A DNA stretch of 64,000 nucleotides. It comes from Candidatus Uhrbacteria bacterium GW2011_GWE2_46_68 (lineage in GTDB: Bacteria; Patescibacteriota; Patescibacteriia; UBA9934; GWF2-40-263). Made by a program: the position numbers and the translations under genes. Within the stretch, counting starts at the first letter, position 1. Each line of letters starts with the position of its first letter. Below, in pieces: positions 10,326 through 56,837 of the stretch. The stretch spans positions 123 to 64,122 of the forward strand of contig LCMS01000010.1 in NCBI GenBank assembly GCA_001002765.1, given 5' to 3'. The notes beneath the pieces are model-generated. The model ran no database searches. It was not told the origin of the DNA and was given only the letters and a program-made list of their open reading frames with translations.

Positions 10326-10401
10326 TGGTCGGGCTGGCGGGACTCGAACCCACGGCCTCTGCGTCCCGAACGCAGCGCTCTACCTGCTGAGCTACAGCCC
10401 G
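10326..10401 (-). tRNA. tRNA-Pro: tRNA-Pro (anticodon CGG)
   Basis: The reverse complement reads CGGGCTGTAGCTCAGCAGGTAGAGCGCTGCGTTCGGGACGCAGAGGCCGTGGGTTCGAGTCCCGCCAGCCCGACCA. It has a 7-bp acceptor stem with a C1-G72 pair (typical of bacterial tRNA-Pro), a D-loop AGCTCAGCAGGTAGAGC, an anticodon stem-loop CTGCG-TTCGGGA-CGCAG (anticodon CGG), a T-arm GGTTCGAGTCC and an encoded CCA. Confidence 0.8.
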
Positions 10402-11622: not shown

Positions 11623-12375
11623 TTATTTTTTTACCGCATCCACAAGAATAAAATTTGAAGTGAATAGATATTCTTTATCTCCTAACGTCACCTTTTCCGG
11701 TGGAACGAATGCAACGGTAAAATTGGTTCGCTCATCTTTGAAAACTTCCTTCAAAAAACTCAAAGCTTCTTCCTGTGTATAATTCGGCTCGTTTTCCACA
11801 ATCCAAAGACTACCATCAGGATAAGTACGTTTAATGTCTGCTGCGAAATCCATAATGATACGCCCTCCAGATTTCAAAACACGTCTCATTTCCAAAAAAA
11901 TGATTTGAAACACCTGCCTTGGAAAAAGATGCATCGTACCCACAGAAAAGACTCCAACAAATTCGCCGTCCTCAAAAGGAAAAGGCTCAACCACATTCAT
12001 GGTCTTTGTGATGAGTTTGTTTTTGAGATGGTCAGGTGTGACACGAACCAGTTTTTGTAAAGCGCCTTCGTCAATATCCACAGCCACAACCTCATCAGCT
12101 TTTTCCAATAACACATGATTAAATCTCCCATCGCCGGCGCAGAGATTCAACCATTTGCCTCCCGTCTCCATGTGGTTTAGTAAATTTGTCGTAGCCAAAT
12201 CTTCCGTCCCCCAAACAGAAGAATGAGAAAGGTCGGCATACTCAATCTCATCAGTGTAGATATATTTCTTTTCATCAGCTTTCATAAACGAGAAAACCCC
12301 GAGAAATACTTCGGGGTTTTGTTTTTTTAAGTAAAAATTTAGCTGCACCCGCTTGTTGCTCCACAATTCAGACAT
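11623..12375 (-). CDS. class I SAM-dependent methyltransferase
   Basis: SAM-binding motif I (LNLCAGDGRFNHVLLEKADEVVAVDIDE). 250 aa. Located between the cobO-like gene and nrdJ on the same strand. Confidence 0.65.
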   Translation of the reverse strand: MSELWSNKRVQLNFYLKKQNPEVFLGVFSFMKADEKKYIYTDEIEYADLSHSSVWGTEDLATTNLLNHMETGGKWLNLCAGDGRFNHVLLEKADEVVAVDIDEGALQKLVRVTPDHLKNKLITKTMNVVEPFPFEDGEFVGVFSVGTMHLFPRQVFQIIFLEMRRVLKSGGRIIMDFAADIKRTYPDGSLWIVENEPNYTQEEALSFLKEVFKDERTNFTVAFVPPEKVTLGDKEYLFTSNFILVDAVKK

Positions 12376-15300
12376 TTATAGCATGAACCGTTTCGCACCA
12401 TGATTGATCCGCAGGTCATACAGGCAGGAGCATCGGATTGATTATCAAACGTGGAGGTAAGACCGGTTGTTGTTTTCTCCGACTGCGCAAATAACGTGGA
12501 TTGTGCTTCAGGACTTTCTTCCACCGCCACGGTCACGACCTGTGGCTTGTTCACGGGCTCAGCCATGATATTACTGTCAGTCGGGTCTTCGGTGACATGC
12601 ACGCCCACGGTCATCTGCACATCCCGAGGTAAAAATTTCATGGCCAACCAACGAAACAAATAATCAATAATGGATTTGGCGATTCGAATTTGTGGGTTAT
12701 TCGTATAGCCTGATGGCTCAAAACGCATATGCACAAATTTATTGACCAACACTTCCAGCGGCACCCCATATTGCAATCCGATCGAAACCGATGTGGCAAA
12801 ACAATCCATCAACCCTCGAATCACTGACCCTTGCTTGGACATCGTGATAAAAATTTCCCCCGGCGTCCCATCATCATAGAGCCCCACATTGATATAGCCC
12901 TCATGACTACCCACACTAAACTTATGCGTGATCGAACGGCGCTCATCGGGCAAGCGGCGACGGCGCGGTTTATCCACAATGGATGGGGTAACTTTTGGCA
13001 CTACGGAAATCACGGATGCCGTGGTTTTTTCCGCCTCTCTAATCCCCTCTTCTTTTTGTCGATCCTCGTTTACCTTTTTGGAATCTTTTTCTTTTGTCGT
13101 CGTCAACGCTTGTTGACGTTTAGATCCATCACGATATACCGCAATCGCTTTGATCCCCATTTTCCATCCTTCCATATACACTTTTCCGATATCCTCCGGA
13201 GTAGAGTCGTGCGGCAAATTGACGGTCTTGGAAATGGCTCCGGAAATAAACGGTTGTACAGCCGCCATCATGCGCAAATGCCCCATATAGTGAATTGTGC
13301 GCTTTCCGTTGACGGGTTTGAACGCGCAATCAAAGACGGACAAATGCTCTTCTTTGAGATGTGGTGCACCTTCGATCGTATCATTGGTATCAATGTAAGT
13401 CGTGATATCGCGTTGCTGTTCCTCGGTATATCCCAATCGCTGTAAAGCTTCTTTCACACAACGATTCACAATTTTCATCATGCCACCACCCACAAGCCAC
13501 TTATATTTAACAAGCGCAATGTCGGGCTCCACTCCGGTCGTATCGCAGTCCATCAAAAAAGCAATAGTGCCGGTGGGAGCCAAAACGGAAATTTGCGCAT
13601 TGCGCGATCCATGCACTTCTCCATCCTCGACAACTTTATTCCAAATGAGACAAGATTCTTTGAGCAAAGCGGGATCAATCCCCTTCTCTTGCAAATGACA
13701 CGCTTCGTCGCGATGCATGCGCATCACTTGCAAAAACGAATCGCGATTCTTTTTATATCCCGCAAACGCTCCGCGCTTTTCCGCAATCTTTGTCGATTGA
13801 TGATAACAATATCCGCTCAACAGTGCTGTGATCGCTGCGGCAAGATTGCGACCTTCTTGCGAATCATAAGCATATCCGTGACTCATCAAAAGCGCACCGA
13901 GATTTGCATACCCAATCCCCAAGGAACGATAATCATGACTGTTGCGTTCAATCGCAGGGGTTGGATAACTTGAATTTCCCACAATGATTTCCATGGCTGT
14001 AATAATAATGCGGCTCACATGCTCAAATGCCTTTACATCAAACTCCATGCGACCGTTCACCTCTTTGCGCAACTTCATGAGATTCAGCGAGGCGAGATTA
14101 CACGCTGTGTCGTTAAGGAACATATATTCACTGCAAGGATTGCTCGCATGAATGCGATCGGTTCCTTTGCAGGTATGCCACGTATTGATGGTTGTATCGT
14201 ATTGAATCCCGGGGTCTCCGCACTGCCAAGCCGCATCACACATTTTTTTCATGAGATCTTTAGCACGATAACGCAAACTTTCTTTCCCTCCCACGACTTC
14301 ATGAGTGACCCATTCGCGATCATCTTCCACTGCGCGCATAAACTCATCGGTCACACGTACAGAGTGATTGGCATTTTGAAAAAACACGGAACTGTAGGCG
14401 TTGCCATCAATCGAACCGTCATACCCGGCATCCATAAGCGCCCAAGCTTTTTTTTCTTCAATCGCTTTTGCCGTAATAAAATCTTCAATATCAGGATGAT
14501 CGATATTCAAAATAACCATCTTGGCCGCACGACGCGTTTTACCACCGCTTTTTATCACCCCGGCAAAAGCGTCAAACCCACGCATAAAAGAAACCGGACC
14601 TGAAGCGCGCCCGTTGCTCCCGCGCAAATATTCTTGTTTGGAACGTAAAATGGAAAGATTCACTCCAGCCCCAGATCCTCCTTTAAACAACATGCCTTCG
14701 GTCACACACAAATTCAAAATGGACCGCATGTCGTCTTGCACCGCATTGATAAAACACGCAGAACATTGCGGATACGAATTCACACCCACATTAAACCAAA
14801 CCGGAGAATTAAATGCGGCCATTTGATTGGTAAGAATATACAAAAGTTCGTGCTCATACACGTCCGCATCTTCCTTGGTTTGAAAATATCCGTCACAACG
14901 CCCCCATTTTGCAATCGTATTGGCAACACGGGTCATGAGTTGTTTGACCGAAGATTCGCGTTCCGACTCCCCCACTTTTCCACGAAAATATTTTGACACC
15001 ACGATATTGGTGGCAGACTGCGACCACGATGCCGGAACCTCCACGCCTTTTTGTTCAAACACGGCCTCTCCTTTTTCGTTTGTGATGCGCGCATCGCGAA
15101 TATCCCAAACCATTTCATCAAAAGGATGCACTCCTTGGCGGGTAAAAAATCTGGAAATCACAAGCCCATCTCCATACACCGGCTCACGTGTACCAATGGC
15201 CGCCAGACTCTCGTACATGGCATAGTGTCTGGCCACATGAGGAAGGTTGTGATCAATAAAAGTAAGAGTAATCACGTCGCGGATATCGGAAAAACACGGT

Positions 15301-15563
15301 GTCATATGCCCGTTAAACCGTCGCACCAGTCGACTCACGATTTGTTCCACCATTTCTTTGACACTGCGCTCGTCTTCAATACCCGCCTCCTTCATGGTTG
15401 CACGAATGGAACGGGAAAGTTTCTGGAGCTCAAAAGGCTCCTCGCGTCCGTCGCGTTTACGAATCATTTTGACAGATGTCAGATAATCCCAAACGGACTC
15501 AGTGACATCCCCGGCTTGGGTTTGCACTTCGGTCTCTGCGGAACGAAACGTTGTGTCAGACAT
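12339..15563 (-). CDS. nrdJ: adenosylcobalamin-dependent ribonucleoside-diphosphate/triphosphate reductase (class II RNR, NrdJ) with N-terminal ATP-cone
   Basis: 1111-aa ORF (track end 15674; the probable start is MSDTTFRS near 15563). ATP-cone (VKMIRKRDGREEPFELQKL), RNR catalytic barrel motifs (NPCSEY, thiyl-radical loop) and a C-terminal Zn-ribbon CMTCGS...CYKCLNCG. The large size and lack of a class I beta-subunit partner fit class II. Confidence 0.9.
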   Translation of the reverse strand: MSDTTFRSAETEVQTQAGDVTESVWDYLTSVKMIRKRDGREEPFELQKLSRSIRATMKEAGIEDERSVKEMVEQIVSRLVRRFNGHMTPCFSDIRDVITLTFIDHNLPHVARHYAMYESLAAIGTREPVYGDGLVISRFFTRQGVHPFDEMVWDIRDARITNEKGEAVFEQKGVEVPASWSQSATNIVVSKYFRGKVGESERESSVKQLMTRVANTIAKWGRCDGYFQTKEDADVYEHELLYILTNQMAAFNSPVWFNVGVNSYPQCSACFINAVQDDMRSILNLCVTEGMLFKGGSGAGVNLSILRSKQEYLRGSNGRASGPVSFMRGFDAFAGVIKSGGKTRRAAKMVILNIDHPDIEDFITAKAIEEKKAWALMDAGYDGSIDGNAYSSVFFQNANHSVRVTDEFMRAVEDDREWVTHEVVGGKESLRYRAKDLMKKMCDAAWQCGDPGIQYDTTINTWHTCKGTDRIHASNPCSEYMFLNDTACNLASLNLMKLRKEVNGRMEFDVKAFEHVSRIIITAMEIIVGNSSYPTPAIERNSHDYRSLGIGYANLGALLMSHGYAYDSQEGRNLAAAITALLSGYCYHQSTKIAEKRGAFAGYKKNRDSFLQVMRMHRDEACHLQEKGIDPALLKESCLIWNKVVEDGEVHGSRNAQISVLAPTGTIAFLMDCDTTGVEPDIALVKYKWLVGGGMMKIVNRCVKEALQRLGYTEEQQRDITTYIDTNDTIEGAPHLKEEHLSVFDCAFKPVNGKRTIHYMGHLRMMAAVQPFISGAISKTVNLPHDSTPEDIGKVYMEGWKMGIKAIAVYRDGSKRQQALTTTKEKDSKKVNEDRQKEEGIREAEKTTASVISVVPKVTPSIVDKPRRRRLPDERRSITHKFSVGSHEGYINVGLYDDGTPGEIFITMSKQGSVIRGLMDCFATSVSIGLQYGVPLEVLVNKFVHMRFEPSGYTNNPQIRIAKSIIDYLFRWLAMKFLPRDVQMTVGVHVTEDPTDSNIMAEPVNKPQVVTVAVEESPEAQSTLFAQSEKTTTGLTSTFDNQSDAPACMTCGSIMVRNGSCYKCLNCGATSGCS

Positions 15564-15864
15564 ACGGCGAGTACGAAAGAAAGAGTAAGAGATAAGAAAA
15601 GATCTTCGTGATTCTTCTTTTATCTCCCTCCCTTTGGAAGGTTGAAAAACTCCCCCTAAGACACGAAAAGACAATCCCCACGGATTATCTTTTTATGTCA
15701 TGAAGAAAGAAGGACGTCTTTCTTCTTTTCCTCCATCGAAGCGACAAACCACTCGTCCGTACGTTCTACCATATGTTGTGGTCTGCTCTTATTTTAGACC
15801 ACGACATATGGGGTGTCAAAAGAAAAACTTATCCACAGAATCGCACAAAAAACGACGCTCAAAA

Positions 15865-16512
15865 TCAAAACGGCATGGTGAGATTGATAACAGGTTGAGG
15901 GGCTATTTTTAAGGCAAAATCCACGGGAATCGCCTTTCTTTCTCCGCTCCTGTCCTCAAACGCGAGGGCTTGATACTTAAGTCCATACTCATACACCTCT
16001 TTGGTAACCCGCACATCGTCCAAACAGTATTGTTTGATCTTGTCCACTTCTCCCTGTTTCCACCACTCGATTGCCTGTAGGCCATGCCCTGTTTTTCGAT
16101 GCCCCACACTTGCGGCGGCTACATCATCCAGCTTGAGCCGAAACCCCAAGGCCTTTTGGATTTCCTCCAAAATATCGAGTTGTGGAAGCTTGAGGAGATC
16201 GCCTGCATAATAGTTATTCATGATAGGCAAATCAAAACTGCGAGAGTTATACCCGATCACTCGATCACAACGCTCCAACCGCGCCCAAAGGCGAGACAAT
16301 TCATGTTCCTCAAAGACCTCGAACGTATTGGTCTCGTAAAAATAAACGCCGACAACCGAGATTTTAAACTTTGTGTAGTCATTCTCGACGTCGGCAAAAC
16401 TATTTTGCGTTTCAATGTCCAATACCACTTCGTGCTTCATACGCGGCACAGTATAACGCAAGGAAGCGATTGGATCAAAATCAAATCTCCACAACAAAAC
16501 GCGAACCCGCAT
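15865..16512 (-). CDS. DEDD-family (DnaQ-like / RNase H-fold) 3'-5' exonuclease
   Basis: Exo I LDIETQN, Exo II GYNSRSFDLP and Exo III YCLDDV motifs in the 215-aa ORF. Confidence 0.6.
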   Translation of the reverse strand: MRVRVLLWRFDFDPIASLRYTVPRMKHEVVLDIETQNSFADVENDYTKFKISVVGVYFYETNTFEVFEEHELSRLWARLERCDRVIGYNSRSFDLPIMNNYYAGDLLKLPQLDILEEIQKALGFRLKLDDVAAASVGHRKTGHGLQAIEWWKQGEVDKIKQYCLDDVRVTKEVYEYGLKYQALAFEDRSGERKAIPVDFALKIAPQPVINLTMPF

Positions 16513-17736
16513 CGGTCGAAACGTAATCCTCCGGATTGTCTACTCTTGTAACAATCCGCTTATCGGTGTGATCCCAAAAAATATTTGGAACACCTTTTGC
16601 CATAAGGGACATACACCCCGCTACATTCATTGCCAAGCTCTTTTGATATTCATACTCGTCCAAAGGTTTTCCTGTAACCTCAAGATGGGTCATGAAAGCC
16701 GTGATCCAATCCTCAAGCGTCATACCCGACTCACCAAAATAAGGAGAGCTGGGGTCTTGTCTGGAGGCTTCAAGAAAATCAATGTCATGCTGAGGTGCGT
16801 ATCTTCCCTCTCGATCAGGCCGTGGGTTCCCCCCCCCCGCACCATTCCGATCTTTTCTTTTGTAATACCGCAAAATCCCGGGGCATCATCGTGTGGAGCC
16901 TGGAGAAGAAGGACTCGCCAGCCGGAAGCGAGTTTCCCTTGATCTTGATCTTCGGCTTCAAGGATTTCTTTTTTTGTTTTTCCACCATGCCCGGGAACGT
17001 AAAAACCGGCAGACGTTGGATGATACACGACGTTATCTATAATCAAGTCATGATCTTTAAAAATAAAACGAAAATGAGTTAAGACAAAATCAGGATGTTT
17101 CTTTCTATATTCCACCAAAAACTCTTGCACCACAGAAACAAAAAAGCCTAATCCCGTGGCAAAAGGAACGAGGAGGAGCCGTGTGAATCCTTGATCTTGT
17201 TTGATTTCGAGTGTTTCGCGACGTTCGTACAATCGTTTGGCGATTTGCTCCAAAGTGGGCACGGGTCGGGAAAGATTTTTCATGTGATCCAAAAAACCTT
17301 CCTTATGTAAAAGTTCAATTTGATCCTCGTATTGTTCACGAAGATTGTAAAAATTCTCGGCATACTCGAGAGTCTCTGCCAGACTCAACTCTTCTTTTGC
17401 CGGTTCTTTGTGTTTCACGAGATATTCAAAACGCTCAAGAAGATCGGCAAGTCGTTCGAGATCTGGAGTGGAGAGTTTACTGGTCGCCTCACGGAGAGCG
17501 GCAGGTTTGGTAAGGGATTCTTTGGAAATCCCGTGAGCTTTTGTAAAATCAATGATCTCTTGCCGCAGAGTTTCAAAGTGTGCGCGATGTTGTTCGGGCA
17601 AAGAATCACGGACACTTGAAACCGAATCCATGATGGCTTCGCCAAGAATTTCCGAAGTGCGTTTGACCCCCACCTCCGCAGGGGTGGCAGAGGAAAAAGA
17701 TTCTGAAGTTGGTCGAAAAAAAGAAACCATATTCAA
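16481..17736 (-). pseudogene. member of the multi-copy paralogous family, split by a frameshift at a G10 homopolymer (minus strand)
   Basis: ORF 16720..17736 encodes the conserved N-terminal domain (EAIMDSVSSVRDSLPEQHRAHFETLRQEIIDFTKAHGI...). ORF 16481..16873 encodes the family C-terminus (DPSSPYFGESGMTLEDWITAFMTHLEVTGKPLD) in another frame. They overlap at a run of 10 C (16829-16838). Confidence 0.6.
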
Positions 17737-18785
17737 TTCGTTTGTCCTCCAAATATCTTTCCAGCTTCATTCCATAGCCCATCAAATCCATGAACCTTCA
17801 AATAATACCACCACTCCGCTCCCCACAAATACACCTCGGACACACCTATCTCTTCGGAAAAATGAACACGATCACGCAAGGCTTTCTCATCAAACAACCC
17901 ATACCATTCCTCAAGCGGCCGATCTCCCAATGACATCGTAAACCATGGCTCGGCTTGAAGCTCGGAAACAACGACCTGATCGGTCCAAAAAGAAGCTGCA
18001 AGCACACGCAGGCGATAAAACAAAGGAGAAATGGGATACACAAAATATCCTGTCGTATCACTCCAGGTGACTTGATAAAGAGAAAATCCCAGTACATCGC
18101 TCATGCGTGCAAGCGGCCACCAAAACTCTAATTCCCCGCTCACAGTCAATTGAATGGGATGATCATCTTGTGCGCGCACAAGAGCCAAAGTTTCTTGAAG
18201 ATTCTCAGAGTCAATCGTCGGACACACTCCATAATCAAAAAGTGGTTCATTTTCTACTTGCCAACGCACAAGAGCTGGAGAATTTTTATAACGTGTGATC
18301 GCTTGTTGCACATAGATGGAAAACGACTCCCAACGCTCATGGTCGGGAAGAGACAGCGCCCAAGATGGAATATGACATTCAGGCCAACGCGGAACTTTTT
18401 GACCAATGACAAGAGTAATCTTCATGTCATAATCCTCTGCGATCGCCAGAAGCGCATCCATTTCTTTCCAATCATACTGTCCCTCCTCTTGTTCAATGTG
18501 ATTCCAGTAGAGAGGTATGCGTGCAAATCGGACGTTTTCTTCCTTTGCAAGAGCGCTAAAAACTTCCTCTGGACTCAATCCAAGTTCTCGCGCATACGCG
18601 GAAGAAAAAGTGATGCCAAACTTTGGCAAAGGTTGGGGATGAAAAATCCACCACATCATTCCTCCGGCCAAAAGAAAAAAAAGCACCGCTCCTCCTATGA
18701 TCCAGAGATGTTTTTGAAAACGTTGGCAACAAAACATAGCAGGCCTTAAATCTCCTCTTTCTTTTCTCGTAAAAAGGCGAGCCAA
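17733..18785 (-). CDS. putative glycoside hydrolase (TIM-barrel, GH5/GH42-like)
   Basis: N-terminal TM anchor. QVENEP motif typical of the retaining GH clan A acid/base catalyst. 350 aa. Confidence 0.4.
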   Translation of the reverse strand: MARLFTRKERGDLRPAMFCCQRFQKHLWIIGGAVLFFLLAGGMMWWIFHPQPLPKFGITFSSAYARELGLSPEEVFSALAKEENVRFARIPLYWNHIEQEEGQYDWKEMDALLAIAEDYDMKITLVIGQKVPRWPECHIPSWALSLPDHERWESFSIYVQQAITRYKNSPALVRWQVENEPLFDYGVCPTIDSENLQETLALVRAQDDHPIQLTVSGELEFWWPLARMSDVLGFSLYQVTWSDTTGYFVYPISPLFYRLRVLAASFWTDQVVVSELQAEPWFTMSLGDRPLEEWYGLFDEKALRDRVHFSEEIGVSEVYLWGAEWWYYLKVHGFDGLWNEAGKIFGGQTN

Positions 18786-20335
18786 CTTTCGATAATCCCA
18801 ATGGCAGCTTTAAACGGCGCTTCCACGATAAAATCAAAAAAGAAAAGAAAAATGTTCACACGTGGTGCACGCATGGCCATCCATCGCCCGGCACGCACAA
18901 TGGGCAAAAAGACAATATCGGCGATAAAGGTGAAAAGTCCTCCGGCGGTTTCCACGACCACCAAATCTTTTTTCGTCTGCCGGATCTTGAGACCGAAAAA
19001 CGCCACCAACATAAAAAAGAAAATGAAAAAGAGAATGGAAACAACGTTAAAAGCAAACAAATGAAGAATAAAAGAAATCACGCTTAATGTGAGAATAAAC
19101 GCGCCAACGTACAACACATTGAACACCATACCCAAAGCCCCTTTGGTCCAAGAACGACGCATCTTAAAGAGCACTAAAAAATCTTCTCCCCATCCGAATA
19201 ATCCTCGCGCTTCTTCCAAAATCTTTTCCGTATTACGTTTTCCCGGAACTTGAACGGTAAATCCAAGAAATGCCAAAAGAGCCGGAGGAAAAATAATATT
19301 CACAAACAGCGGGACGTAGTTGGTGGTGTGCAAGATGAACGTTTCGTATGGTGCTTCCAAAACAAGGGCCAACAACATCTTGGTAAAAAAGAGGAACACG
19401 GTAGCGCGAATCACTCCACGCGCCAATCGAGAACGAAAACGACTATATCGTTCTTGCGCCGCGCGCGTAAGCGCCGTCTCGATTTTTTCTTTTTGTGTAT
19501 TTTCAAATGCCTGATTAAATGCGTCCGGATCATCTTGAGTGATGTCGCGCAATAGATGGAACACGACGGCGTGACGGCGCATAAGACGATACAAAGAATC
19601 GCTCCCGGGATGTTGTAATTGATGCTCTGCGGTTTCCACAAACGCACTGAAGTTTTGTTCTACTTCTGCCACAACGGGATCTCCGGCTTGAGCTTTGCGC
19701 CACGTGGGAAAATACAACGTGAGCAAGCGAAACCGTAACATAGCGGGATTGGCTTTTAAAACAGAGCGATGAATCGCGATGAACAATTGAAGATCGCGAT
19801 CCTCTTCGGTCACAATCTTTGTGCTCCATTGCACACGTTTACGCATCTCCTGATACGCATATTGTGTCAGTGCCTCATCAACAAGCGGAGGATCCAACAG
19901 ATATTCGATTTCACACGTAAGCACGTCAAGGAGCCAATCATAATGGTCCTGACCTTTTTTGGAATCTTCGGGGAGTCCTGCAAAAAGTCCTTGATATTTG
20001 GAAAGAATTTGCGCAAGCTCCTCAATCTTTCTCTCCGGAATTTTTTTATTGGGAAAATAACGGGCCCAAATGAGCTCACGCAACAGATTGGTGGCAAGAT
20101 TGCGGTCCATCCCCTCTCCCATACGTCGTTTCAAAATGCGGCGAATCGCATTGCGCCGCAACAAATGATCCTCATCATACTCAAGTGTATTGCGCACAAT
20201 CTCATAGGCTGAGGCCGCAACCGAGAGTGTCTCATTGACTGTAATGACTTCTTCTTTGGGAGCCTCTTGCGCATCTTGTTTTACCCGCACAATGGTGCGC
20301 AGTAGGTGGTGGAGTGTTTGATCCATATAAAACAT
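18746..20335 (-). CDS. hypothetical polytopic membrane protein
   Basis: 529 aa. Soluble N-terminal half, C-terminal half with several hydrophobic helices. No recognisable domain. Confidence 0.5.
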   Translation of the reverse strand: MFYMDQTLHHLLRTIVRVKQDAQEAPKEEVITVNETLSVAASAYEIVRNTLEYDEDHLLRRNAIRRILKRRMGEGMDRNLATNLLRELIWARYFPNKKIPERKIEELAQILSKYQGLFAGLPEDSKKGQDHYDWLLDVLTCEIEYLLDPPLVDEALTQYAYQEMRKRVQWSTKIVTEEDRDLQLFIAIHRSVLKANPAMLRFRLLTLYFPTWRKAQAGDPVVAEVEQNFSAFVETAEHQLQHPGSDSLYRLMRRHAVVFHLLRDITQDDPDAFNQAFENTQKEKIETALTRAAQERYSRFRSRLARGVIRATVFLFFTKMLLALVLEAPYETFILHTTNYVPLFVNIIFPPALLAFLGFTVQVPGKRNTEKILEEARGLFGWGEDFLVLFKMRRSWTKGALGMVFNVLYVGAFILTLSVISFILHLFAFNVVSILFFIFFFMLVAFFGLKIRQTKKDLVVVETAGGLFTFIADIVFLPIVRAGRWMAMRAPRVNIFLFFFDFIVEAPFKAAIGIIESWLAFLREKKEEI

Positions 20336-22977: not shown

Positions 22978-24287
22978 TTAAACGATCACAGAGGAGCGAA
23001 CGCCGATGTTCTCATTCTGATCACCAGAACCTTCTATACCGAGGCAAACACAACGAACGCCATGATTCCAAAACGCGCTTAGTACAAGGACGGAGGAAGA
23101 AAAAAAAGCGCCTGTAAGACAACTGTAACTTTCAGTGTTTATTACATTATATGCATCATCAAGCGGCTCCTCTCTCTCAGAAAAGTGTGTCATAAAAGCC
23201 ATGATCCAGTCCTCTGGAGTCATACCGAACTCTTGAAAGTAAGGTGAGTCTGGATCGTCTTGAGCGTTTTGAAGAATGGAAAGATATTCATTGGGGGTTT
23301 TGTTTGCTTCAAGAGGAGGACGTGAAGTGAGCTTTCCTTGGGGTGTTCCTTGACCTTGTCGGGGAATAGAAGAAAAACCTATGGGAGTCTCCATGTCTTG
23401 GTCATCTAGGTTTGAAGGTTGAAAAAGATGAACGGTCCAACCGGGGGTTCCCAATCCCTTCTCTCCTGCCACCCCTGCGGAGGCAGGGGTCCATCGTCCT
23501 TCTGTTTGTTCTTCGAGTATCTGTGCTTTTGTTTTCCCCCATGACCTTTTTTTTGTAAAAGACTGTGGATAATAGACAAGGTTTGGAGAATCCCCCATGT
23601 CTGCTCCTTGATAGTCTTCCCACGTCCAGAGAGGATTGTTGATATCCAAATAAAAATCAGGATGGGACCCCTTATATCTAAGAATGAATCGTTTAAACGT
23701 TTCACAAAGGGAATCAAGGCTCATACCAAAGGGAACAAGGAGGAGTTTAGTAAAGCCTTGATCGTGTTTGGTGTGGAGAGTCTCACGGCGTTCAAACAGA
23801 CGCATGGCGATACTCCTTCTTTAAGTATTCCCGCTTCTTTAAGAAGGTTGAATTGAAAAGTGTATTGTTCACGAAGATGGTAAAACTCTTCGGCATACTC
23901 GAGGGCTTCGGCATAGTCTTCTTTCTTTGGTTCCCCATTCTTGAGAAGATATTCAAAACGTTCGAGAAGATTGGCAAGTCGTTCAAGGTCTTGGGTGGAG
24001 AGTTTGCTAGTAGCCTCACGGAGAGCGGCAGGTTTAGCAAGAGCAGCTTTGGGAATCCCATGAGCTTTTGTAAAATCAATGATCTCTTGTCGCAGAGTTT
24101 CAAAGTGTGCGCGATATTGTTCGGGCAAAGAATCACGAACACTTGAAACCGAATCCATGATGGCCTCATGGAGAGTAGCGGATAAAGGAGGTTCAGAAGA
24201 CAGCGTCCCCCTTCGTCCCGCCGTTGGCGGGACTTCGGAGGGACAGTTTTCACTTTTTGTGAAAACTGTTGGTCGAAAAAGAGACAT
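22978..24287 (-). pseudogene. member of the multi-copy paralogous family disrupted by an internal deletion/frameshift
   Basis: The N-terminal part (23721..24287) and C-terminal part (22978..23805) are in different frames. Alignment with the intact copy near 56400 shows loss of about 50 nt around 23800. Confidence 0.55.
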
Positions 24288-33625: not shown

Positions 33626-34876
33626 TTAAACGATTACCGAGGTACGTATACCAAGGTACCCGGAACGACTGCGATAGTTAGACCAGACGAAATTCACTTT
33701 CTGATCATTACAGTCCCAGTATGCACACGGTACTGAACTGATAAAAGAATATACAGCTCCTAAGAAACAACTATGACCTTCTATTCTTGTAGGGTTCCAT
33801 ATATCATCAAGAGGTTTTCCTGTTTCTTGAAGATGAGTCATAAAAGCTATGATCCAATCCTCGAGAGTCATACCGGATTCATGGGAGTAAGGGGAATCTT
33901 CCTTGTCTTTGCATGCTTGAAGAGTAGAAAAATATTCATTGGCGGATTGACCTATCTCAAGAGGAGGACGCGGGGTGAGGTCTCCTTGGAGTTTTCCTTT
34001 ACCTTGAGGAGGAATAAAAGCAAAACCTAAAGAGTTTGAATCTGACGGATTTGAGGGTTGGAGAAGATGAACCGTCCAGCCATTGAAAGAATCTGGATTG
34101 TTGTCTTGTGTCTCAAGTATCTGTGCCTTTGTCTTCCCTCCATGTCTATCTTCTGTAAAAGACTGTGGCTTATAGACAAGATTGGGAAAATTTCCTGTAT
34201 CTGCTCCTTGATATCCTTCTTCTTGTATCAAAAAAGAATCATTGGTTTTAGGGGCAAAGGTTGGATGAAATTGTTTGTAAGAGAGTAAGAATTGATCAAG
34301 GGTTTTTATAAGGACGTCAAGGCTCATGCCAAAGGGAACCAGAAGAAGTTTAGTGAAACCTTGTTCGTGTTTGGTTTGGAGAGTCTCACGGCGTTCGAAA
34401 AGACGGGAAGCGATTTGTTCGAGAGTGGGGATGGGGTACTTCTTACCGTCTATCCCTGTAATCGCTCCTTCTTTGAGAATACCTGCTTGTTCAAGGAGAG
34501 CGACTTGGGAAGTGTATTGTTTTTCGAGATGATAAAACTCTTCGGCATACTCACGAGCTTCGGAAAGTTTCTCTTTCATGGGTTCTTTTTTGACAATCAG
34601 ATACTTAAAGCGTTCGAGAAGATTGGCTAGTCGTTCAAGATCGGAAGTGGGGAGTTTGCTGGCAGCCTCGCGGAGAGCATCAGGTTTGGAAAGTAATTCT
34701 CTTGGAATATCGTGAGATGCTGCAAAATCAATAATCTCTTGTCGCAGAATGTTAAAATGTTCGTGGTGTTCTTTGGGAAGAGAATCACGGACACTTGAAA
34801 CCGAGGCAAGGACGGCTTCATGGAGAGCCGGTTCTATGGAATGAGCGGATTCGGGAGACGGTCGAGAAAAAGACAT
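33626..34876 (-). CDS. multi-copy paralogous family member (intact, 416 aa)
   Basis: Conserved family N-domain (LPKEHHEHFNILRQEIIDFAASHDI..., KHEQGFTKLLLVPFGMSLD, GWTVHLLQPS, GMTLEDWIIAFMTHLQETGKPLD). Variable C-terminal region. Terminal motif GIRTSVIV. Confidence 0.7.
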   Translation of the reverse strand: MSFSRPSPESAHSIEPALHEAVLASVSSVRDSLPKEHHEHFNILRQEIIDFAASHDIPRELLSKPDALREAASKLPTSDLERLANLLERFKYLIVKKEPMKEKLSEAREYAEEFYHLEKQYTSQVALLEQAGILKEGAITGIDGKKYPIPTLEQIASRLFERRETLQTKHEQGFTKLLLVPFGMSLDVLIKTLDQFLLSYKQFHPTFAPKTNDSFLIQEEGYQGADTGNFPNLVYKPQSFTEDRHGGKTKAQILETQDNNPDSFNGWTVHLLQPSNPSDSNSLGFAFIPPQGKGKLQGDLTPRPPLEIGQSANEYFSTLQACKDKEDSPYSHESGMTLEDWIIAFMTHLQETGKPLDDIWNPTRIEGHSCFLGAVYSFISSVPCAYWDCNDQKVNFVWSNYRSRSGYLGIRTSVIV

Positions 34877-38390: not shown

Positions 38391-39650
38391 TTAAATCATC
38401 ACCGAGGTGTGAACACCAAAAAGCTCGCTTCGACGGTTGGTGCCACTCTGACCAATCTCTACCCGTCGCCATGTATGATTCCAACACGCGTCTGATAAAG
38501 AGACAGCGTAAGGAAAAAGAGATCTCATAAGATAAGAAGCGCTTTCTGTATTGTTTACAATATTATCCAAAGGTTTTCCTGTTTCTTGAAGATGAATCAT
38601 AAAGGCTATAATCCAATCCATGGGAGTTAATCCGGACTCTAGAAAATAAGGGGAATCAGAATTGTTTTGAACCTCCCGAAAAATAGAAAAATACTCCGAG
38701 GGCGACTTTCCCGCCTCAAGAGAAGGGCGACCTCCTTGGGATGTCCCTTGACCTTCGCGAGGAATAGAAACAAAACCTTTGGAATACTGATCGGAGGGAT
38801 CCGAGGGTTGAAAAAGATGAACCGTCCAACCTGAAAAAAAATCTTCAGCATCTCTTTGTTTGTTAAGAATCTCTGTCTTCGTTTGACCCTGATGAGACCT
38901 ATCGAGAAACAATGGATCGTAAATAATTACGTTAGATCCTTTGGTATCCACTCTTTCGGAAAAACTTATAAAAAAAGGATTATTTGCATTGAGATCAAAA
39001 GAGGGGTGAACCTCTTTGTAGTCACGAAGAAATTGTTTAAGAACATCCGCAAGAACTTCGATGCTCATGCCAAAGGGAACAAGAAGGAGTTTGGTGAAAC
39101 CTTGGTCATGCTTGGTTTTTAGTTTCTCACGACGCTCAAACAAACGAACAGCGATTTGTTCCAAAGTGGGGATGGGATAGGTACGTTTATCTATACCTCG
39201 GATGGCTCCTTCTTCGAGAATACCGACTTGTTCAAAAAAGGAAACCTGAGAATTATATTGTTCCTTGAGGTGATAGTATTTCTCGGCATATTCAAGAGGA
39301 TCGGTAGGTTCTTTGGGTTCTTTCTTTACAATCAGATACTGAAAGTGCTCAAGAAGATAAGTGAGTCTCTCAAGGTCTGGGATGGAAAGTTTGCTGGTCA
39401 CCTCGCGCAGGAGGTCGGGTTTGGCGAGGGATTTTTTTGTGATCCCGTGAGCTTTTGTAAAATTAATGATCTCTTGTCGCAGAGTTTCAAAATGCGCGCG
39501 GTGTTGTTCAGGAAGAGAATCACGAATACTTGAAACCGAATCCATAATGGCTTCGCCAAGGATTTCCGAAGTGCGTCTAACCCCTACCTCCGCAAGGGCG
39601 GCAGACGGGGAAGATTCCAAACTTGGTCGAAAAAGAGACATAGATATCAA
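38391..39650 (-). CDS. multi-copy paralogous family member (intact, 419 aa)
   Basis: Family N-domain (EAIMDSVSSIRDSLPEQHRAHFETLRQEIINFTKAHGI...). C-terminal motif GVHTSVMI. First of three tandem copies. Confidence 0.7.
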   Translation of the reverse strand: MISMSLFRPSLESSPSAALAEVGVRRTSEILGEAIMDSVSSIRDSLPEQHRAHFETLRQEIINFTKAHGITKKSLAKPDLLREVTSKLSIPDLERLTYLLEHFQYLIVKKEPKEPTDPLEYAEKYYHLKEQYNSQVSFFEQVGILEEGAIRGIDKRTYPIPTLEQIAVRLFERREKLKTKHDQGFTKLLLVPFGMSIEVLADVLKQFLRDYKEVHPSFDLNANNPFFISFSERVDTKGSNVIIYDPLFLDRSHQGQTKTEILNKQRDAEDFFSGWTVHLFQPSDPSDQYSKGFVSIPREGQGTSQGGRPSLEAGKSPSEYFSIFREVQNNSDSPYFLESGLTPMDWIIAFMIHLQETGKPLDNIVNNTESASYLMRSLFPYAVSLSDACWNHTWRRVEIGQSGTNRRSELFGVHTSVMI

Positions 39651-39653
39651 AAG

Positions 39654-40946
39654 TTAAAGCATCACCGAGGAACGCACACCAGTATCCACAACCCAACCAA
39701 GAAGACTATTCCCGAAGAGATGAATCCGACGACTGCCACGGCTCCAACGCGCTCTTGGCACAAGGTAGGAGAAAAGAAAAAAAGCACCTGTAAGATTAGA
39801 GGCGCTCTCTATGCCATTTAGATAGTCATCCAGTGGTTTTCCTGTTTCGGAAAGATGAATCATAAAGGCTGTGATCCAATCTTCCGGAGTCATACCTGTT
39901 TCACCATGATAGGGAGAATCTTTATCGTCTTGAGCATTTTGAAGAATGGAAAGATATTCATTGGGAGTTTTGCTTGCTTCAAGAGAAGGACGAGGGACGA
40001 GGTCTCCTTGGGATGTTCCTTTACCTTGTCGGGGAATATGAGCAAAGCCCATGGGAGCTTCAGTATCTTGTGAGTCAGAGTTTGATGGTTGAAAAAGATG
40101 AACCGTCCAACCGGGAAAGGAATCTTGATTGTCTTCTTGTTCCCTAAGTATCTCCATCTTGGTCTTTCCTTGATGACCCTTTTCATCAAAAGACTGTGGA
40201 TAATAGAAAAGATTTGGAGAATCCCCCGTGTCTGCTCCTTGATAGTCTCCCGATGTGAAGAGAGGCATGCTGGTATCAAGATCAAAAGAGTGGGACTTTT
40301 TATATTTGATGAAAAATTGTTTGATGGTTTCTTGGAGAGCATCAAGGCTCATCCCAAAAGGAACGAGAAGAAGTTTGGTAAAACCTTGGTCGTGTTTGGT
40401 TTTGAGAGTCTCGCGGCGTTCAAACAGACGAGAAGCTATTTGTTCGAGAGTTGGCACGGGATATTCATGACCGTCTATACCTAGGATGACTCCTTCTTTG
40501 AGGATGCCCACTTCCTCAAGAAGCTCTACTTGAGAATCGTATTGCTCACGAAGATGATAAAACTTCTCTCCATACTCAATGGCTTTGGCAGGGTCTATCT
40601 CTTCTTTCTTTGGTTCTCCATTCTTGAGAAGATATTCAAAGCGTTCGAGAAGGAGAGCGAGTCGTTCAAGGTCTTGGGTGGAGAGTTTGCCGGTCACCTC
40701 GCGCAGGAGATCAGGCTTGCCAAGAGATTCTCTTGGAATCCCGTGAACCTCGGTAAAAGTGATGATCTCTTGTCGCAGAGTTTCAAAGTGCGCGCGATGT
40801 TGTTCGGGCAAAGAATCACGGACACTTGAAACCGAATCCATGATGGCCTCACCAAGGATTTCCGAAGTGCGTCTAACCCCTGCCTCCGCAGGGACGGCAG
40901 AGGAAAAAGATTCTGAAGTTGGTCGAAAAAAAGACATAGATATCAA
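39654..40946 (-). CDS. multi-copy paralogous family member (intact, 430 aa)
   Basis: Family N-domain. Terminal motif GVRSSVML. Separated by 3 bp from both flanking paralogs. Confidence 0.7.
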   Translation of the reverse strand: MISMSFFRPTSESFSSAVPAEAGVRRTSEILGEAIMDSVSSVRDSLPEQHRAHFETLRQEIITFTEVHGIPRESLGKPDLLREVTGKLSTQDLERLALLLERFEYLLKNGEPKKEEIDPAKAIEYGEKFYHLREQYDSQVELLEEVGILKEGVILGIDGHEYPVPTLEQIASRLFERRETLKTKHDQGFTKLLLVPFGMSLDALQETIKQFFIKYKKSHSFDLDTSMPLFTSGDYQGADTGDSPNLFYYPQSFDEKGHQGKTKMEILREQEDNQDSFPGWTVHLFQPSNSDSQDTEAPMGFAHIPRQGKGTSQGDLVPRPSLEASKTPNEYLSILQNAQDDKDSPYHGETGMTPEDWITAFMIHLSETGKPLDDYLNGIESASNLTGAFFLFSYLVPRARWSRGSRRIHLFGNSLLGWVVDTGVRSSVML

Positions 40947-40949
40947 AGG

Positions 40950-42299
40950 TTAAATGATCACCGAGGAACGAGCGCCGGCGTTCTTGTCGTCATCACGAAG
41001 ACTGCTCCTACTGAGGCAAGCTTGTCGTTCAAAACGCCCCCAACATGCATTCGATGTAGGAATGGAAAGAGGGAAAAAAACTCCTGCAAGACAAGAAATG
41101 CTTTCTTTATTATTTTGCCAGTTATCCAATGGTTTTCCTGTTTCAGAAAGATGAATCATAAAGGCCATGATCCAATCTTCCGGAGTCATGCCTGTTTCAC
41201 CGTGATAGGAAGAGTCTTTATCACCTTGAGCTTTTTGAAGAATGGAAAGATATTCAATGGGAGATTTTCCTGTTTCAAGAGGAGGTCGAGGGACGAGGTC
41301 TCCTTGAGGTGTTCCTTGTCCTTCTCTGGGAATAGAAGAAAAGCCCGGGGAATGTGGATTGGAAGGATCAGAAGGCTGGAGAAGATGAACGGTCCAACCG
41401 GGGGTTCCCTCTCCCTTCTCTCCTGCCACCCCTGCAAAGGCAGGGGTCCATCGTCCTTGGGCTTGTTCCTTAAGTATCTCCATCTTGGTCTTCCCCCCAT
41501 GACCCTCTCTTGTAAAAGACTGTGGATAATAGACAAGATTTGGGGAATCCCCTGTGTCTGCTCCTTGATATCTTGGCCATGTCCAGAGAGGAATACTGGT
41601 ATCAAGACCAAAAGAGGAGTGGGACTCTTTATATTTGATGAGAAATTGTTTGAGTGTTTCTCTGAGAGTATCAAGACTCATCCCAAAGGGAACAAGAAGA
41701 AGTTTGGTAAAACCTTGGTCGTGTTTGGTTTTAAGTTCCTCACGGCGTTCAAACAGACGTATGGCGATTTGTTCCAAAGTGGGGATGGGATAGATTTTAC
41801 CGTCTATACCTAGGATAGCTCCTTCTTTAAGTATTCCTGCTTCCTCAAGAAGCTCTACTTGAAAATTATATTGTTCACGAAGATTGTAAAGACGTTCAAT
41901 TTCTTGAAGATGTTTCGGAAGTTTTTCTTTCTTTGGTTCCCCGTTCTTGAGAAGGTATTCAAAACGTTCGAGAAGATCGGCAAGTCGTTTGAGATCTGGA
42001 GTGGAGAGTTTGCCGGCGGCCTCGCGGAGAGCGGAGGGTTTGGAAAGTGTGTCTTTGAAAATCCCATGAACCTTTGTAAAATCAATGATCTCATGTCGCA
42101 GAGTTTCAAAATGCGCTCGGTGTTGTTCGGGAAGAGAATCGCGGACACTTGAAACAGAATCCATGATGGCTTCACCAAGAAGTGCAGAAGACACCGGATC
42201 CCCGCCTGTGCGGGGATGACGGTTGCGGGAAGAGTGTGACTCCACAGGGGTAACGGAGGAACGAGGAGAAAATTCAGGAGATGAACGAACGAAAGACAT
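40950..42299 (-). CDS. multi-copy paralogous family member (intact, 449 aa)
   Basis: Family N-domain with a divergent leader. Optional insert GRWTPAFAGVAGEKGEGTP. Terminal motif GARSSVII. Confidence 0.7.
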   Translation of the reverse strand: MSFVRSSPEFSPRSSVTPVESHSSRNRHPRTGGDPVSSALLGEAIMDSVSSVRDSLPEQHRAHFETLRHEIIDFTKVHGIFKDTLSKPSALREAAGKLSTPDLKRLADLLERFEYLLKNGEPKKEKLPKHLQEIERLYNLREQYNFQVELLEEAGILKEGAILGIDGKIYPIPTLEQIAIRLFERREELKTKHDQGFTKLLLVPFGMSLDTLRETLKQFLIKYKESHSSFGLDTSIPLWTWPRYQGADTGDSPNLVYYPQSFTREGHGGKTKMEILKEQAQGRWTPAFAGVAGEKGEGTPGWTVHLLQPSDPSNPHSPGFSSIPREGQGTPQGDLVPRPPLETGKSPIEYLSILQKAQGDKDSSYHGETGMTPEDWIMAFMIHLSETGKPLDNWQNNKESISCLAGVFFPLSIPTSNACWGRFERQACLSRSSLRDDDKNAGARSSVII

Positions 42300-46543: not shown

Positions 46544-47697
46544 ACGGGATAAAAACGTTTGCTTTGTTGTTGTGTCACAGACAAATATGTTTGCTCAAGT
46601 TTTGTAATCAAAGGATCCCAGGCAAAAACTTGTTCAGATCGCAAGCGAGCTGACCTTCCCAACCGTTCCCGCAATAATGGTTGTTCCAAAAGAAGAGACA
46701 AAGCGCGTGCAAGAGCGCGTGCATCCCCAGCGGGTTCCAAAAGTCCGGTTTCTCCATTAAGCACCACTCCGCGCACACCTGGCAAATCCGATGCGATCGT
46801 GGGAAGACCGCTGGCCGCTGCCTCCAATGCCACCATACCAAAAGCCTCTGCACGTTTTGTGGAAGGAAACAGATGCACATCCGCAGCTTGATAATATCTT
46901 GGAAGATGTTCTTCGGAAACCTTTCCTGTAAAATGCACGCGTGAAGCGTAGGGCAGCCCATGTACGATTGCTTCATACCCCGTTTTCAAGCTCCCCTCTC
47001 CCACAAGTAAAAGATGCCAATCTTTTTGTCCTAGACGTTCCAATGCCTCCAAAAGAATCGGCACTCCCTTGAAATGATGCGCCTCGTCCATGCCGCCGAC
47101 AAACAAAAAAACAGGTGCCTCTTTTGGAATCTTCCACTGTTTTTTTATCTCCTCATCTTTCCTTGGATGAAACCGATCAAGATCCACTCCAAACGGATGG
47201 ACTTCCACGCGATCAAAAATATGTGGAATATCGCAAAGGGCTGACGTCTCGGCGTACTCTTTAGAGCTCACCAAAATACGATCTGCCCGATTCATAAGCC
47301 AAGGAAACAATAATCGACGATGAGCACTATGAATCACCCCACGAATTCCGGTCACACACGCATCGTGATGATAGGTGATGACAAGCCCCTGATGTGCTTG
47401 CAGAGCTTTGCGCACAATCACAGGTTCGGCCCCACCAAAAAAAGGGTAGTGCAAATGAACAAGATCGAAACCTTTCAGTCGATAAAATAAAGAAGGAGTA
47501 ACCCCGGCGTTTCCCACATGTAAAGGAGAAGGAACGCGATGCACGTAGTCGGGATCTCCACTCACTGATGCGTAGCGTGGTGTGTATACATGTACATGGT
47601 GTCCGCGTGCGCGTAAACGCTCGGTATATTCAAAAGCGACTCGGCCAATACCGCCGGCGTACGGAGGATAGGTGCAGGTGACATGCGCGATTTTCAC
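46540..47697 (-). CDS. glycosyltransferase family 4 (GT-B)
   Basis: EAFGMVALEAAASGLPTIASDLPGVRGVV. 385 aa. 4-bp overlap with the upstream GT4. Confidence 0.75.
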   Translation of the reverse strand: MKIAHVTCTYPPYAGGIGRVAFEYTERLRARGHHVHVYTPRYASVSGDPDYVHRVPSPLHVGNAGVTPSLFYRLKGFDLVHLHYPFFGGAEPVIVRKALQAHQGLVITYHHDACVTGIRGVIHSAHRRLLFPWLMNRADRILVSSKEYAETSALCDIPHIFDRVEVHPFGVDLDRFHPRKDEEIKKQWKIPKEAPVFLFVGGMDEAHHFKGVPILLEALERLGQKDWHLLLVGEGSLKTGYEAIVHGLPYASRVHFTGKVSEEHLPRYYQAADVHLFPSTKRAEAFGMVALEAAASGLPTIASDLPGVRGVVLNGETGLLEPAGDARALARALSLLLEQPLLRERLGRSARLRSEQVFAWDPLITKLEQTYLSVTQQQSKRFYPV

Positions 47698-47698
47698 A

Positions 47699-48775
47699 TT
47701 AACGAATCAGGGGTTTTAAACATATCCACAAAAAAGAAAGCGCCTTGTCTCCCATTTTCGTTAATCGTGAAAAAGGAAGTTCTTGATAGGCAATCGCCCC
47801 TGTCCAGATACGAACAATTTCTCGATCGGAAATCGTACGCAACAACGCAGAGTCTCGACGTTTCTTTTTGAGATACGTCCAGGTCTTTGGAGAAAACCAT
47901 ATACACCAGGCTAAAAGCTTCTCTTTCATCCACCCTCCTTTGATCGCCAAAATAAAAAGTGTGACTTCCAGTCCTAAAAGCCAAGGAGCCAAAAGAATCA
48001 ATGTGGAATAACGGCCATGAGAACAAAGCACGAGCCCGCGATTACGCTCCATCCAAAAATATTTTTTAATGGATCGTTGAAACTCGTAATGATGATATGC
48101 AATGGAGGACGCACAAAGTACATTGCGGTATCCGGCCAGTCTCATGCGCCAACCCAATTCCAAATCTTCGTGATACAAAAAAAGAAACGGGTCTAATAAT
48201 CCCACGGTTTGCAGTACGTGTGCGCGCAAGAGCACACCCGCGCCGCTTGCGTAAGCGATTTCTTCCCCATCACTCATAGAAACTTGGTTCAAAGGAATGC
48301 CATTATGTCTCGCATATCCCAATCCCAAAAAATGTTGCATACCTCCAGAGCTATTGATGACGTCCGGTTGTTGCCACAACAACAACAACGATTGAACAGA
48401 TCCAATCGTCGGATCACTTTCCGCCATGGCAACGGCGCGATCCATTGCCTCGGGATGAAGCTTGGCGTCATTATTGAGAAGATAGACATAATCACATCCA
48501 TCCAAAAGGGCACGCTCTATCCCGATATTATTCCCCCTGGCAAACCCGGTATTTTTTTCTTGCGGCAACAGAATCATTTGTGGAAGTGTCCCTTGAGATT
48601 TTGGGAGATACTCTTTGCGGATACGCTCTGCGCTTCCGTCAGACGATGCGTTGTCAACGACAATAAGACGCAGCCGATCTTTCGGATACTGTAATCTCTC
48701 CAAAGAAGTAAATACTTCATCAAGATAAGGAACCGCATTGTAGGAAAGATACACGATGGCAACCAATGGTTTCAT
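47699..48775 (-). CDS. glycosyltransferase family 2
   Basis: N-terminal VAIVYLSYNAVPYLDE...IVVDNASSDGS (GT-A, DxD-type). Confidence 0.7.
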   Translation of the reverse strand: MKPLVAIVYLSYNAVPYLDEVFTSLERLQYPKDRLRLIVVDNASSDGSAERIRKEYLPKSQGTLPQMILLPQEKNTGFARGNNIGIERALLDGCDYVYLLNNDAKLHPEAMDRAVAMAESDPTIGSVQSLLLLWQQPDVINSSGGMQHFLGLGYARHNGIPLNQVSMSDGEEIAYASGAGVLLRAHVLQTVGLLDPFLFLYHEDLELGWRMRLAGYRNVLCASSIAYHHYEFQRSIKKYFWMERNRGLVLCSHGRYSTLILLAPWLLGLEVTLFILAIKGGWMKEKLLAWCIWFSPKTWTYLKKKRRDSALLRTISDREIVRIWTGAIAYQELPFSRLTKMGDKALSFLWICLKPLIR

Positions 48776-49119
48776 AGATCTTTTTTCGATGCATCCTCCT
48801 TTGCATTCAAAGCGATCATGCGTACAAGTTTTGTGATCTCGCGCTCCACTCCCTCAAGCCGCGCATATAAACGAAAAAGCAAATAAAATAAACTGACGAT
48901 GGCCAGATATATCACAACGTCCACTCCTCTTCCTACGCCGACCAACCGCGCGGCTATGTCTGTCGTTTGTGGCAATAAAACCATGACTCCCGCTCCGACC
49001 CAAACAATAACCCAGAGCAATGTCCAATGCACGGGAAGTTGGTGAGCGCGAAATTGTTTCATCGTGCGCAAAAGCGCAAAGACAAAAAAGAAAAGAAGAA
49101 AGATTTGAAGAAATGACAT
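48772..49119 (-). CDS. small membrane protein, DUF2304-like (GT2-associated)
   Basis: 115 aa, 3-4 TM helices. Motif TDIAARLVGVGRGVDVVIYL. Immediately between two GT2 genes, the usual context for DUF2304. Confidence 0.5.
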   Translation of the reverse strand: MSFLQIFLLFFFVFALLRTMKQFRAHQLPVHWTLLWVIVWVGAGVMVLLPQTTDIAARLVGVGRGVDVVIYLAIVSLFYLLFRLYARLEGVEREITKLVRMIALNAKEDASKKDL

Positions 49120-49125
49120 AAGGGT

Positions 49126-49788: not shown

Positions 49789-49791
49789 ACT

Positions 49792-50805: not shown

Positions 50806-50866
50806 AGGAAAAAAATTACAAGGTCTCACTTCAGTGTACGAGAAAAGAGACGCTCTCTCAATAGGT

Positions 50867-52924: not shown

Positions 52925-52926
52925 AC

Positions 52927-55586: not shown

Positions 55587-55591
55587 AGAGG

Positions 55592-56752: not shown

Positions 56753-56837
56753 GATGGCTTCGTGGAGAGTAGCGGATAAAGGAGGTTCAGAAGACAGAGT
56801 CCCCCTTCGTCCCGCAAAGAGACATAAATATCAAAGG

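Follow-up and report, generated by a model that had tools for sequence, protein, structure and literature searches.

The longest homopolymer of the window (the whole 64-kb stretch of Candidatus Uhrbacteria DNA analysed here) is a run of ten C on the plus strand, in the context ...GGGTTCCCCCCCCCCGCACC..., corresponding to G10 on the coding minus strand; the ten C that the earlier note had placed here were read directly. The next-longest G/C runs are C8 at 53335-53342, C7 at 2178 and G7 at 29535. The tract occupies nt 899-908 of a gene of 1,256 nt, i.e. 71% along, and lies inside the overlap of two minus-strand ORFs, 16720-17736 and 16481-16873 (130 aa). These ORFs had been described as overlapping exactly at the run: the frame does change at the tract, but the overlap is 154 nt wide, and the wording was loose in this respect. 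The broader claim, that one member of a gene family is frame-broken at the G10 tract, is borne out by both the ORFs and the paralogue comparison. The features of the gene and the copies of its family are listed in Table 1.

Table 1 The disrupted gene, its pieces and the other copies of its family in the window
Feature	Position	Strand	Description	Evidence
G10 homopolymer, site of frame change	16829..16838	-	codons 300-303 counted from TTG	G10 in L001-L005, L009, L014
Whole disrupted family gene	16481..17736	-	418 aa with G11 (416 from ATG 17730)	colinear with paralogues and orthologues P0001, P0002
Upstream ORF as it stands	16720..17730	-	336 aa from ATG, 338 aa from TTG 17736	
Native-frame C-terminal segment	16481..16828	-	~115 codons, detached from N-terminal part	no stop codon
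Residual 80-aa ORF (MTLEDW...VVEI)	16481..16723	-		separate gene by gene finders
Second disrupted paralogue	22978..24287	-	split by non-repeat internal deletion of ~50 nt	no homopolymer
Family copy	33626-34876	-		tblastn
Family copy, intact, tandem	38391-39650	-		tblastn
Family copy, intact, tandem	39654-40946	-		tblastn
Family copy, intact, tandem	40950-42299	-		tblastn
Family copy	55592-56752	-		tblastn
Family copy	56838-58109	-		tblastn
Family copy	62926 to window end	-		tblastn

When the tract was set to G11 in silico, an uninterrupted frame of 418 aa (416 from the ATG) was obtained, with the peptide ...IGMVRGGGNPRPDR... across the tract. G8 likewise yields 417 aa (415 from the ATG); G9 and G12 lead to a stop four codons past the glycines, and G7, G10 and G13 to a 36-codon out-of-frame tail. 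The gene is thus one indel away from the full-length 418-aa product, as had been proposed, and that indel must be +1.

A bare run of ten is somewhat unusual at most, with roughly one per Mb expected by chance: C10/G10 was present in 7 of 100 dinucleotide-preserving shuffles of the window, and G/C run counts drop about five-fold per extra base. The part not attributable to chance is the coincidence of G10 with the sole frame break in a gene that is colinear with its paralogues and orthologues across the tract.

The product of the upstream ORF consists of ~300 native residues followed by the out-of-frame tail THGLIEREDTHLSMTLIFLKPPDKTPALLILVSRV. In the family alignment, the tract position is a variable loop directly ahead of a nearly invariant RP..E motif, and the detached C-terminal segment carries the most conserved motif of the family, SPY..E.GMT.EDWI.AFM.HL. 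Lacking this motif, several predicted core strands and with them the conserved C-terminal third of the core domain, the truncated product is probably non-functional. No obvious signal peptide or membrane segment was seen in the product when the sequence was read by eye, without a predictor. At 16720-16723, the ATG of the 80-aa ORF overlaps the TGA of the shifted upstream ORF in an ATGA, and this ATG is the conserved Met of GMTLEDW. The overlap needs no special explanation, since the family encodes Met-Thr (ATG ACN) at this point, so that a TGA falls there in the shifted frame. In the databases, the 336-aa product is annotated as hypothetical (KKU32976.1, KKU40773.1, HBK34175.1), and four NCBI records hold the 80-aa fragment (KKU32975.1, KKU40772.1, HBK34174.1, HCB19437.1).

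Elsewhere in the window, a near-consensus sigma-70-like promoter (TTGACA, 17-nt spacer, TAAAAT) is found on the minus strand at 15791-15819, within a gap of 190 nt that precedes the class II ribonucleotide reductase gene (12339-15674). An Rfam search of the whole window returned no RNA element except one tRNA at 10329-10401.

An expanded orphan family with turnover of copies

Searches with the repaired protein (tblastn) revealed about ten copies of the family, all on the minus strand of the window and 44-53% identical to the target. The copies (~420 aa) are scattered among housekeeping genes over the 64 kb. No Pfam, NCBIfam or PADLOC model matched any window copy above threshold, and the homologues, found in Candidatus Uhrbacteria from groundwater metagenomes, are hypothetical proteins; the family is an orphan one, expanded in this lineage of the Candidate Phyla Radiation (CPR). 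A profile search of 1.84 billion representatives identified 776 relatives at E <= 0.001. The conserved core comprises the C-terminal ~300 residues, and in some distant relatives (P0189, P0207, P0256, P0260, P0266) it is placed after an AAA_5 ATPase domain. The AlphaFold2 model of an intact orthologue (pLDDT 70) consists of an N-terminal helical part and an alpha/beta core, with no significant structure match in PDB or BFVD.

The second disrupted paralogue comprises an N-half ORF at 23721-24287 (188 aa) and a C-half ORF at 22978-23805 (275 aa), and its deletion removes the segment that corresponds to AILGIDG..YPIPTLEQ of the paralogues. With a perfect GAAGGAG 7 nt ahead of the ATG of the C-half, both halves might still be translated. 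A conserved two-gene (split-domain) architecture of the family was considered and rejected, as the break falls at a different place in each of the two broken copies and the orthologues are single genes.

Several further irregularities were observed among the copies. Two paralogues, 55592-56752 and 56838-58109, start at the conserved MDSVSS and have no start codon for the variable N-terminal ~35 residues; in-frame homology runs upstream of both (tblastn reaches 56776 and 58184, respectively), and they may be N-terminally shortened copies. Locus L010, an ANAN16 scaffold, is 100% identical to the window over 46894-56815 and diverges at 56815 (position 11429 of L010) inside a tandem family array, with a different paralogue upstream; this reflects either recombination between paralogues or chimeric assembly. 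Locus L009, a variant haplotype of the disrupted gene, shows nine clustered differences from the window at 17638-17685, a 48-nt N-terminal patch within which its product, P0003, matches the N-terminus of paralogue 39654-40946, as a result of either gene conversion between paralogues or assembly cross-talk. The family thus shows turnover: a second copy is internally deleted, arrays differ at 56815, and N-terminal patches move between copies.

Origin of the tract and selection on the gene

The best full-length relatives of the broken gene, P0001 (79% identity, 434 aa) and P0002 (77% identity, 412 aa), are both intact. The locus of P0001 (L006) is syntenic with the window: in both, an RNase H-like gene and a class II ribonucleotide reductase gene come after the family gene, and the DNA is 86% identical over 5.2 kb. 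At the tract site, L006/P0001 and L007/P0002 read CGAGGGATAAAAAAACC and have no tract; the codons are CGA GGG ATA AAA AAA CCT/TCT (R-G-I-K-K-P/S), i.e. GGGATAAAAAAACC. The window has CGG GGG GGG GGA ACC at this site and is exactly 1 nt shorter than the orthologues. A further 22 family genes were compared, drawn from the window and loci L006, L007, L010, L011 and L013. The loop has the length of the G11 version in 20 of them, and a G/C run of at most 6 was found in all 22. Within ~123 kb of non-redundant Uhrbacteria DNA, there is no other G/C run above 8, and nothing between 8 and 10. Given the tract-free orthologues and family genes and the prevailing loop length, the tract is a lineage-specific novelty, and G11 is its natural in-frame length. 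Related genomes had been proposed as a place to look for tract-length polymorphism; the syntenic orthologues proved intact and free of the tract, which leaves the contingency reading without support from that side.

Another important question is whether the sequence past the tract shows signs of decay. The 114 downstream codons contain no stop codon and no second lesion, and their dN/dS is 0.198 against L006 and 0.191 against L007. Upstream of the tract, the values are 0.286 and 0.157, respectively, and the pair of intact orthologues gives 0.192 upstream and 0.211 downstream; the dN/dS test is low-powered for a recent event. The further inactivating mutations by which the earlier note would have recognised a fixed pseudogene were thus not found; the downstream frame is clean, with divergence resembling that under purifying selection. 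Such an undecayed frame fits either a very recent break or continued use.

As to how a run of ten G could have arisen here, a few A-to-G changes in an ancestral CGA GGG ATA AAA AAA would have produced a run of G6-7, which slippage would then have lengthened at the cost of the A run, giving an in-frame G11 intermediate. A -1 slip from G11 to G10 would break the frame and silence a redundant copy. G10 could also slip back during replication; reversion is physically possible, and the locus may therefore act like a switch. Two other sources of the run were considered and rejected. For the A-to-G cluster, an origin in adenine-specific mutagenesis by a diversity-generating retroelement is at odds with the confinement of the changes to ~12 nt and the conservation of adjacent adenines, and no reverse transcriptase is among those window genes that were annotated. 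Gene conversion from a paralogue would require a G-rich donor, and no paralogue is G-rich at the site.

Tract length in public assemblies

These observations raise the question of whether the length of ten is a property of the genome or an artifact. G10 was found in all seven loci read (L001-L005, L009 and L014), which come from several assemblers and several read sets, and 13 public contigs code for precisely the 336-aa truncated product. Five loci that carry the exact product (L001-L005; from ENA, JGI, NCBI, an ANAN16 scaffold and an SRR1658468 assembly) match the window at 99.97-100% identity along as much as 7 kb; these assemblies represent one near-clonal groundwater population that was sequenced and assembled many times. 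Since all of them come from essentially one clonal population, their agreement on G10 reveals little of how stable the tract is in evolution. G10 is also present in the variant haplotypes L009 and L014, and the allele P0124 (SRR3989339) has the same shifted tail.

Locus L014 differs from the window in two further respects. A G-to-A change at window position 16857 (3874 of L014), which replaces Glu with Lys, creates an in-frame A9 19 nt upstream of G10. In addition, a 72-bp block of L014 (~1921-1992; window 18739-18809) is exchanged for unrelated, equal-length, G+C-rich sequence at the junction of genes 17733-18785 and 18746-20335, altering the C-terminus of the upstream gene. A small inversion as the cause of this exchange was not supported.

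No in-frame protein of at least 90% identity was found in the homologue search, and exact look-ups of the G7, G8, G9, G11, G12 and G13 products among ~15 billion proteins returned none of them. The 80-aa fragment, a gene call that arises only from a broken frame, occurs on 11 contigs. Pattern scans (variable-gap and flank-only) of the metagenome contig collection and of the genome contig collection gave no match to the locus; as the same pattern does match the window and the retrieved loci, those collections do not contain this locus. The tract length is therefore invariant at the consensus level, at which minority G11 cells would be invisible.

As a control for sequencing error, the other 20 long homopolymers of the window (A/T runs of at least 8, G/C runs of at least 7) were inspected, and none of the 20 interrupts a gene. 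The assembly is thus not generally unreliable at homopolymers. One of these runs, the C8 at 53335-53342 (G8 on the coding strand), is in frame inside the S8 peptidase / FG-GAP gene 52927-55008. It was not retained as an independent control of stability, since L010 represents the same genome in this region. Taken together, G10 in every independent assembly, the identical product of 13 contigs and the 20 undisturbed runs make the simple assembly error that the earlier note had offered as an alternative unlikely.

Discussion

The best explanation of these data, to which we assign a probability of about one half, is that a genuine recent -1 slip, from G11 to G10, in a poly-G tract found only in this lineage inactivated one redundant member of the family. 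In the same reading and at the same odds, the gene can be regarded as a pseudogene of recent origin or, which amounts to the same, as a copy locked OFF, in a near-clonal groundwater population of Candidatus Uhrbacteria. The frame is disrupted relative to intact orthologues, and the state is the same across the population, as expected of a pseudogene. Further lesions or relaxed constraint downstream, which would also be expected, are not seen (dN/dS 0.19-0.20, like the intact controls), so that a pseudogene here must be a very recent one. Nothing indicates selection maintaining the tract as a switch. Two points weigh against this reading. The formation of ten G from GGGATAAAAAAA needs several changes within 12 nt, which could be a hint of selection for a mutable tract, and the downstream dN/dS is also what would be expected of a gene still in use.

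As it stands, the lesion is of an ordinary kind in an unusual organism and an unusual gene family. If the break is indeed a recent slip, the annotation is affected: KKU32976.1 (336 aa) and KKU32975.1 (80 aa) would be two pieces of one homopolymer-broken gene, and their counterparts in three other MAG records would likewise be pieces of one gene. The case also shows that a large family specific to Uhrbacteria gains and loses copies.

A different possibility is that the gene is a true contingency locus, in which slippage between G10 (OFF) and G11 (ON) at high frequency varies one family member and the sampled aquifer population happens to be OFF. We consider this unlikely. Only two structural features of contingency loci are present here: a slip-prone repeat (a G/C run of ~8 or more) in the coding region, and a repeat number that toggles between full-length (G11, G8) and truncated (G9, G10, G12) products. 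G10 is well above the length at which known poly-G tracts slip in Campylobacter, Neisseria and Bifidobacterium breve (PMC8355987, PMC3786947, PMC9187656). Moreover, one +1 step would lead to the ON state, which equals the loop length of the family, the C-terminal frame is fully kept with a dN/dS of ~0.2, the changes that formed the tract are clustered in an unusual way, and the family is large, variable and lineage-specific, of a kind often tied to host or phage interaction. Against this stands the absence of any length difference, at the consensus level, in the seven loci, the 13 contigs or the protein collection, and thus of variation between strains, samples or assemblies. The tract is kept in neither the orthologues nor the 22 other family genes, which gives no sign of conserved mutability, and it is the only long G/C run in ~123 kb, so that long tracts are not enriched in the genome either. 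Its position 71% into the gene would be wasteful for an ON/OFF switch; a 5' bias is known for poly(A)/poly(T) tracts (PMC2831843). Neither a signal peptide nor a membrane segment is obvious in the product, and searches against restriction-modification and defence models gave no match. Of the earlier description of the gene as a candidate phase-variable switch, the tract structure and the one-base restoration therefore stand, whereas the lack of length variants in public assemblies, the absence of the tract from relatives and its late position speak against it.

Patescibacteria cells have tiny genomes and are presumably host-dependent. Were the tract a true switch, such a cell would gain stochastic variation in a host- or phage-facing function, contingency-locus biology would reach uncultured ultra-small bacteria, and the orphan family would be one that is worth varying for the cell. 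In the literature searched, no paper was found that links phase variation with Patescibacteria; the sole paper containing both terms concerns archaeal DNA methylation. It is nevertheless rather improbable that this is the first phase-variable locus based on a simple sequence repeat in the Candidate Phyla Radiation (Patescibacteria), i.e. a new poly-G switch toggling one member of an orphan family.

Still less probable, in our estimation, is a systematic miscall, by which the genome would truly be G11, the gene intact and all Illumina assemblies one base short. All public data are short-read assemblies of one population, and the gene has no defect besides the one base. PCR and sequencing slippage at G tracts are biased, and annotated G-tract lengths differ from error-corrected ones; in Bifidobacterium breve, error-corrected sequencing showed that database lengths can misrepresent the true length distribution (PMC9187656). 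For such a miscall, however, the majority of reads in each sample would have to err the same way. The length is equal in different read sets and assemblers (judged by record names), and the other 20 long homopolymers, C8 included, leave genes intact; the call is thus reproducible, though it might reflect a shared systematic bias.

The last explanation, recoding, by which full-length protein would be made from G10 through RNA polymerase slippage (+G) or -1 ribosomal frameshifting on G GGG GGG, is to be regarded as highly improbable: a slippery heptamer X XXY YYZ is formally present in the zero frame (CG G GGG GGG GGA), where a -1 shift would read R-G-G-G-N-P, identical to the G11 protein, and the downstream frame is intact, but a stimulatory structure is lacking past the tract (folding of the downstream 89 nt is weaker than that of shuffled sequence, z = +1.69, and folding of the tract context is unremarkable, z = +0.67), no Shine-Dalgarno-like stimulator was seen upstream, and the frameshift site is not conserved, the orthologues being in frame. 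In endosymbionts and IS elements, frameshifts at long homopolymers, mostly runs of A/T, are rescued by transcriptional slippage; in E. coli, G-only heptamers are poor -1 sites and G/C runs are poor sites of transcriptional slippage. Some transcriptional slippage on the G10 run is conceivable.

Comparison with known systems

The surface-glycan genes of Campylobacter jejuni and the hmbR/hpuAB and pgtA genes of Neisseria (PMC8355987, PMC3068675, PMC3786947, PMC2193922) resemble the present case in that a coding G/C run of at least 9 sets the frame and a one-base change toggles between full-length and truncated products. However, those tracts vary between isolates and within cultures, recur in many genes and are kept in orthologues, whereas the Uhrbacteria tract is unique, absent from relatives, invariant in public assemblies and located late in the gene. 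Their products are surface or modification proteins, in contrast to the orphan protein without an obvious export signal described here.

The pilus G-tract switch of Bifidobacterium breve (PMC9187656) is similar in other respects: it is found in a non-pathogen whose reference sequence has a G tract between two ORFs, the annotation corresponds to the OFF state, and the ORFs become one when the G count changes suitably. The differences are that equivalent G tracts occur across that genus and that heterogeneity was established by error-corrected sequencing and linked to pilus production; the tract in Uhrbacteria shows neither conservation nor, at the consensus level, heterogeneity. In Mycobacterium tuberculosis, the 7C tract of glpK (PMC10334774; bioRxiv 10.1101/717272) exemplifies ordinary cytoplasmic genes whose frame is reversibly shifted at short G/C runs, and variants of this type were recognised from population genomics and not from surface-antigen biology. 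There, independent isolates repeatedly vary at the tract, in contrast to the invariant tract studied here.

A further comparison is with the homopolymer microevolution of Bordetella pertussis (PMC1891110) and the GeneTack classes of frameshifts (PMC3711429). Typical pseudogenes gather further lesions and relaxed dN/dS, none of which is detectable in the present gene. The likeness lies in a single homopolymer frame break that is restricted to one lineage while the orthologues are intact, and the Uhrbacteria family, as is the case with homopolymer frameshift pseudogenes, also loses copies by other lesions.
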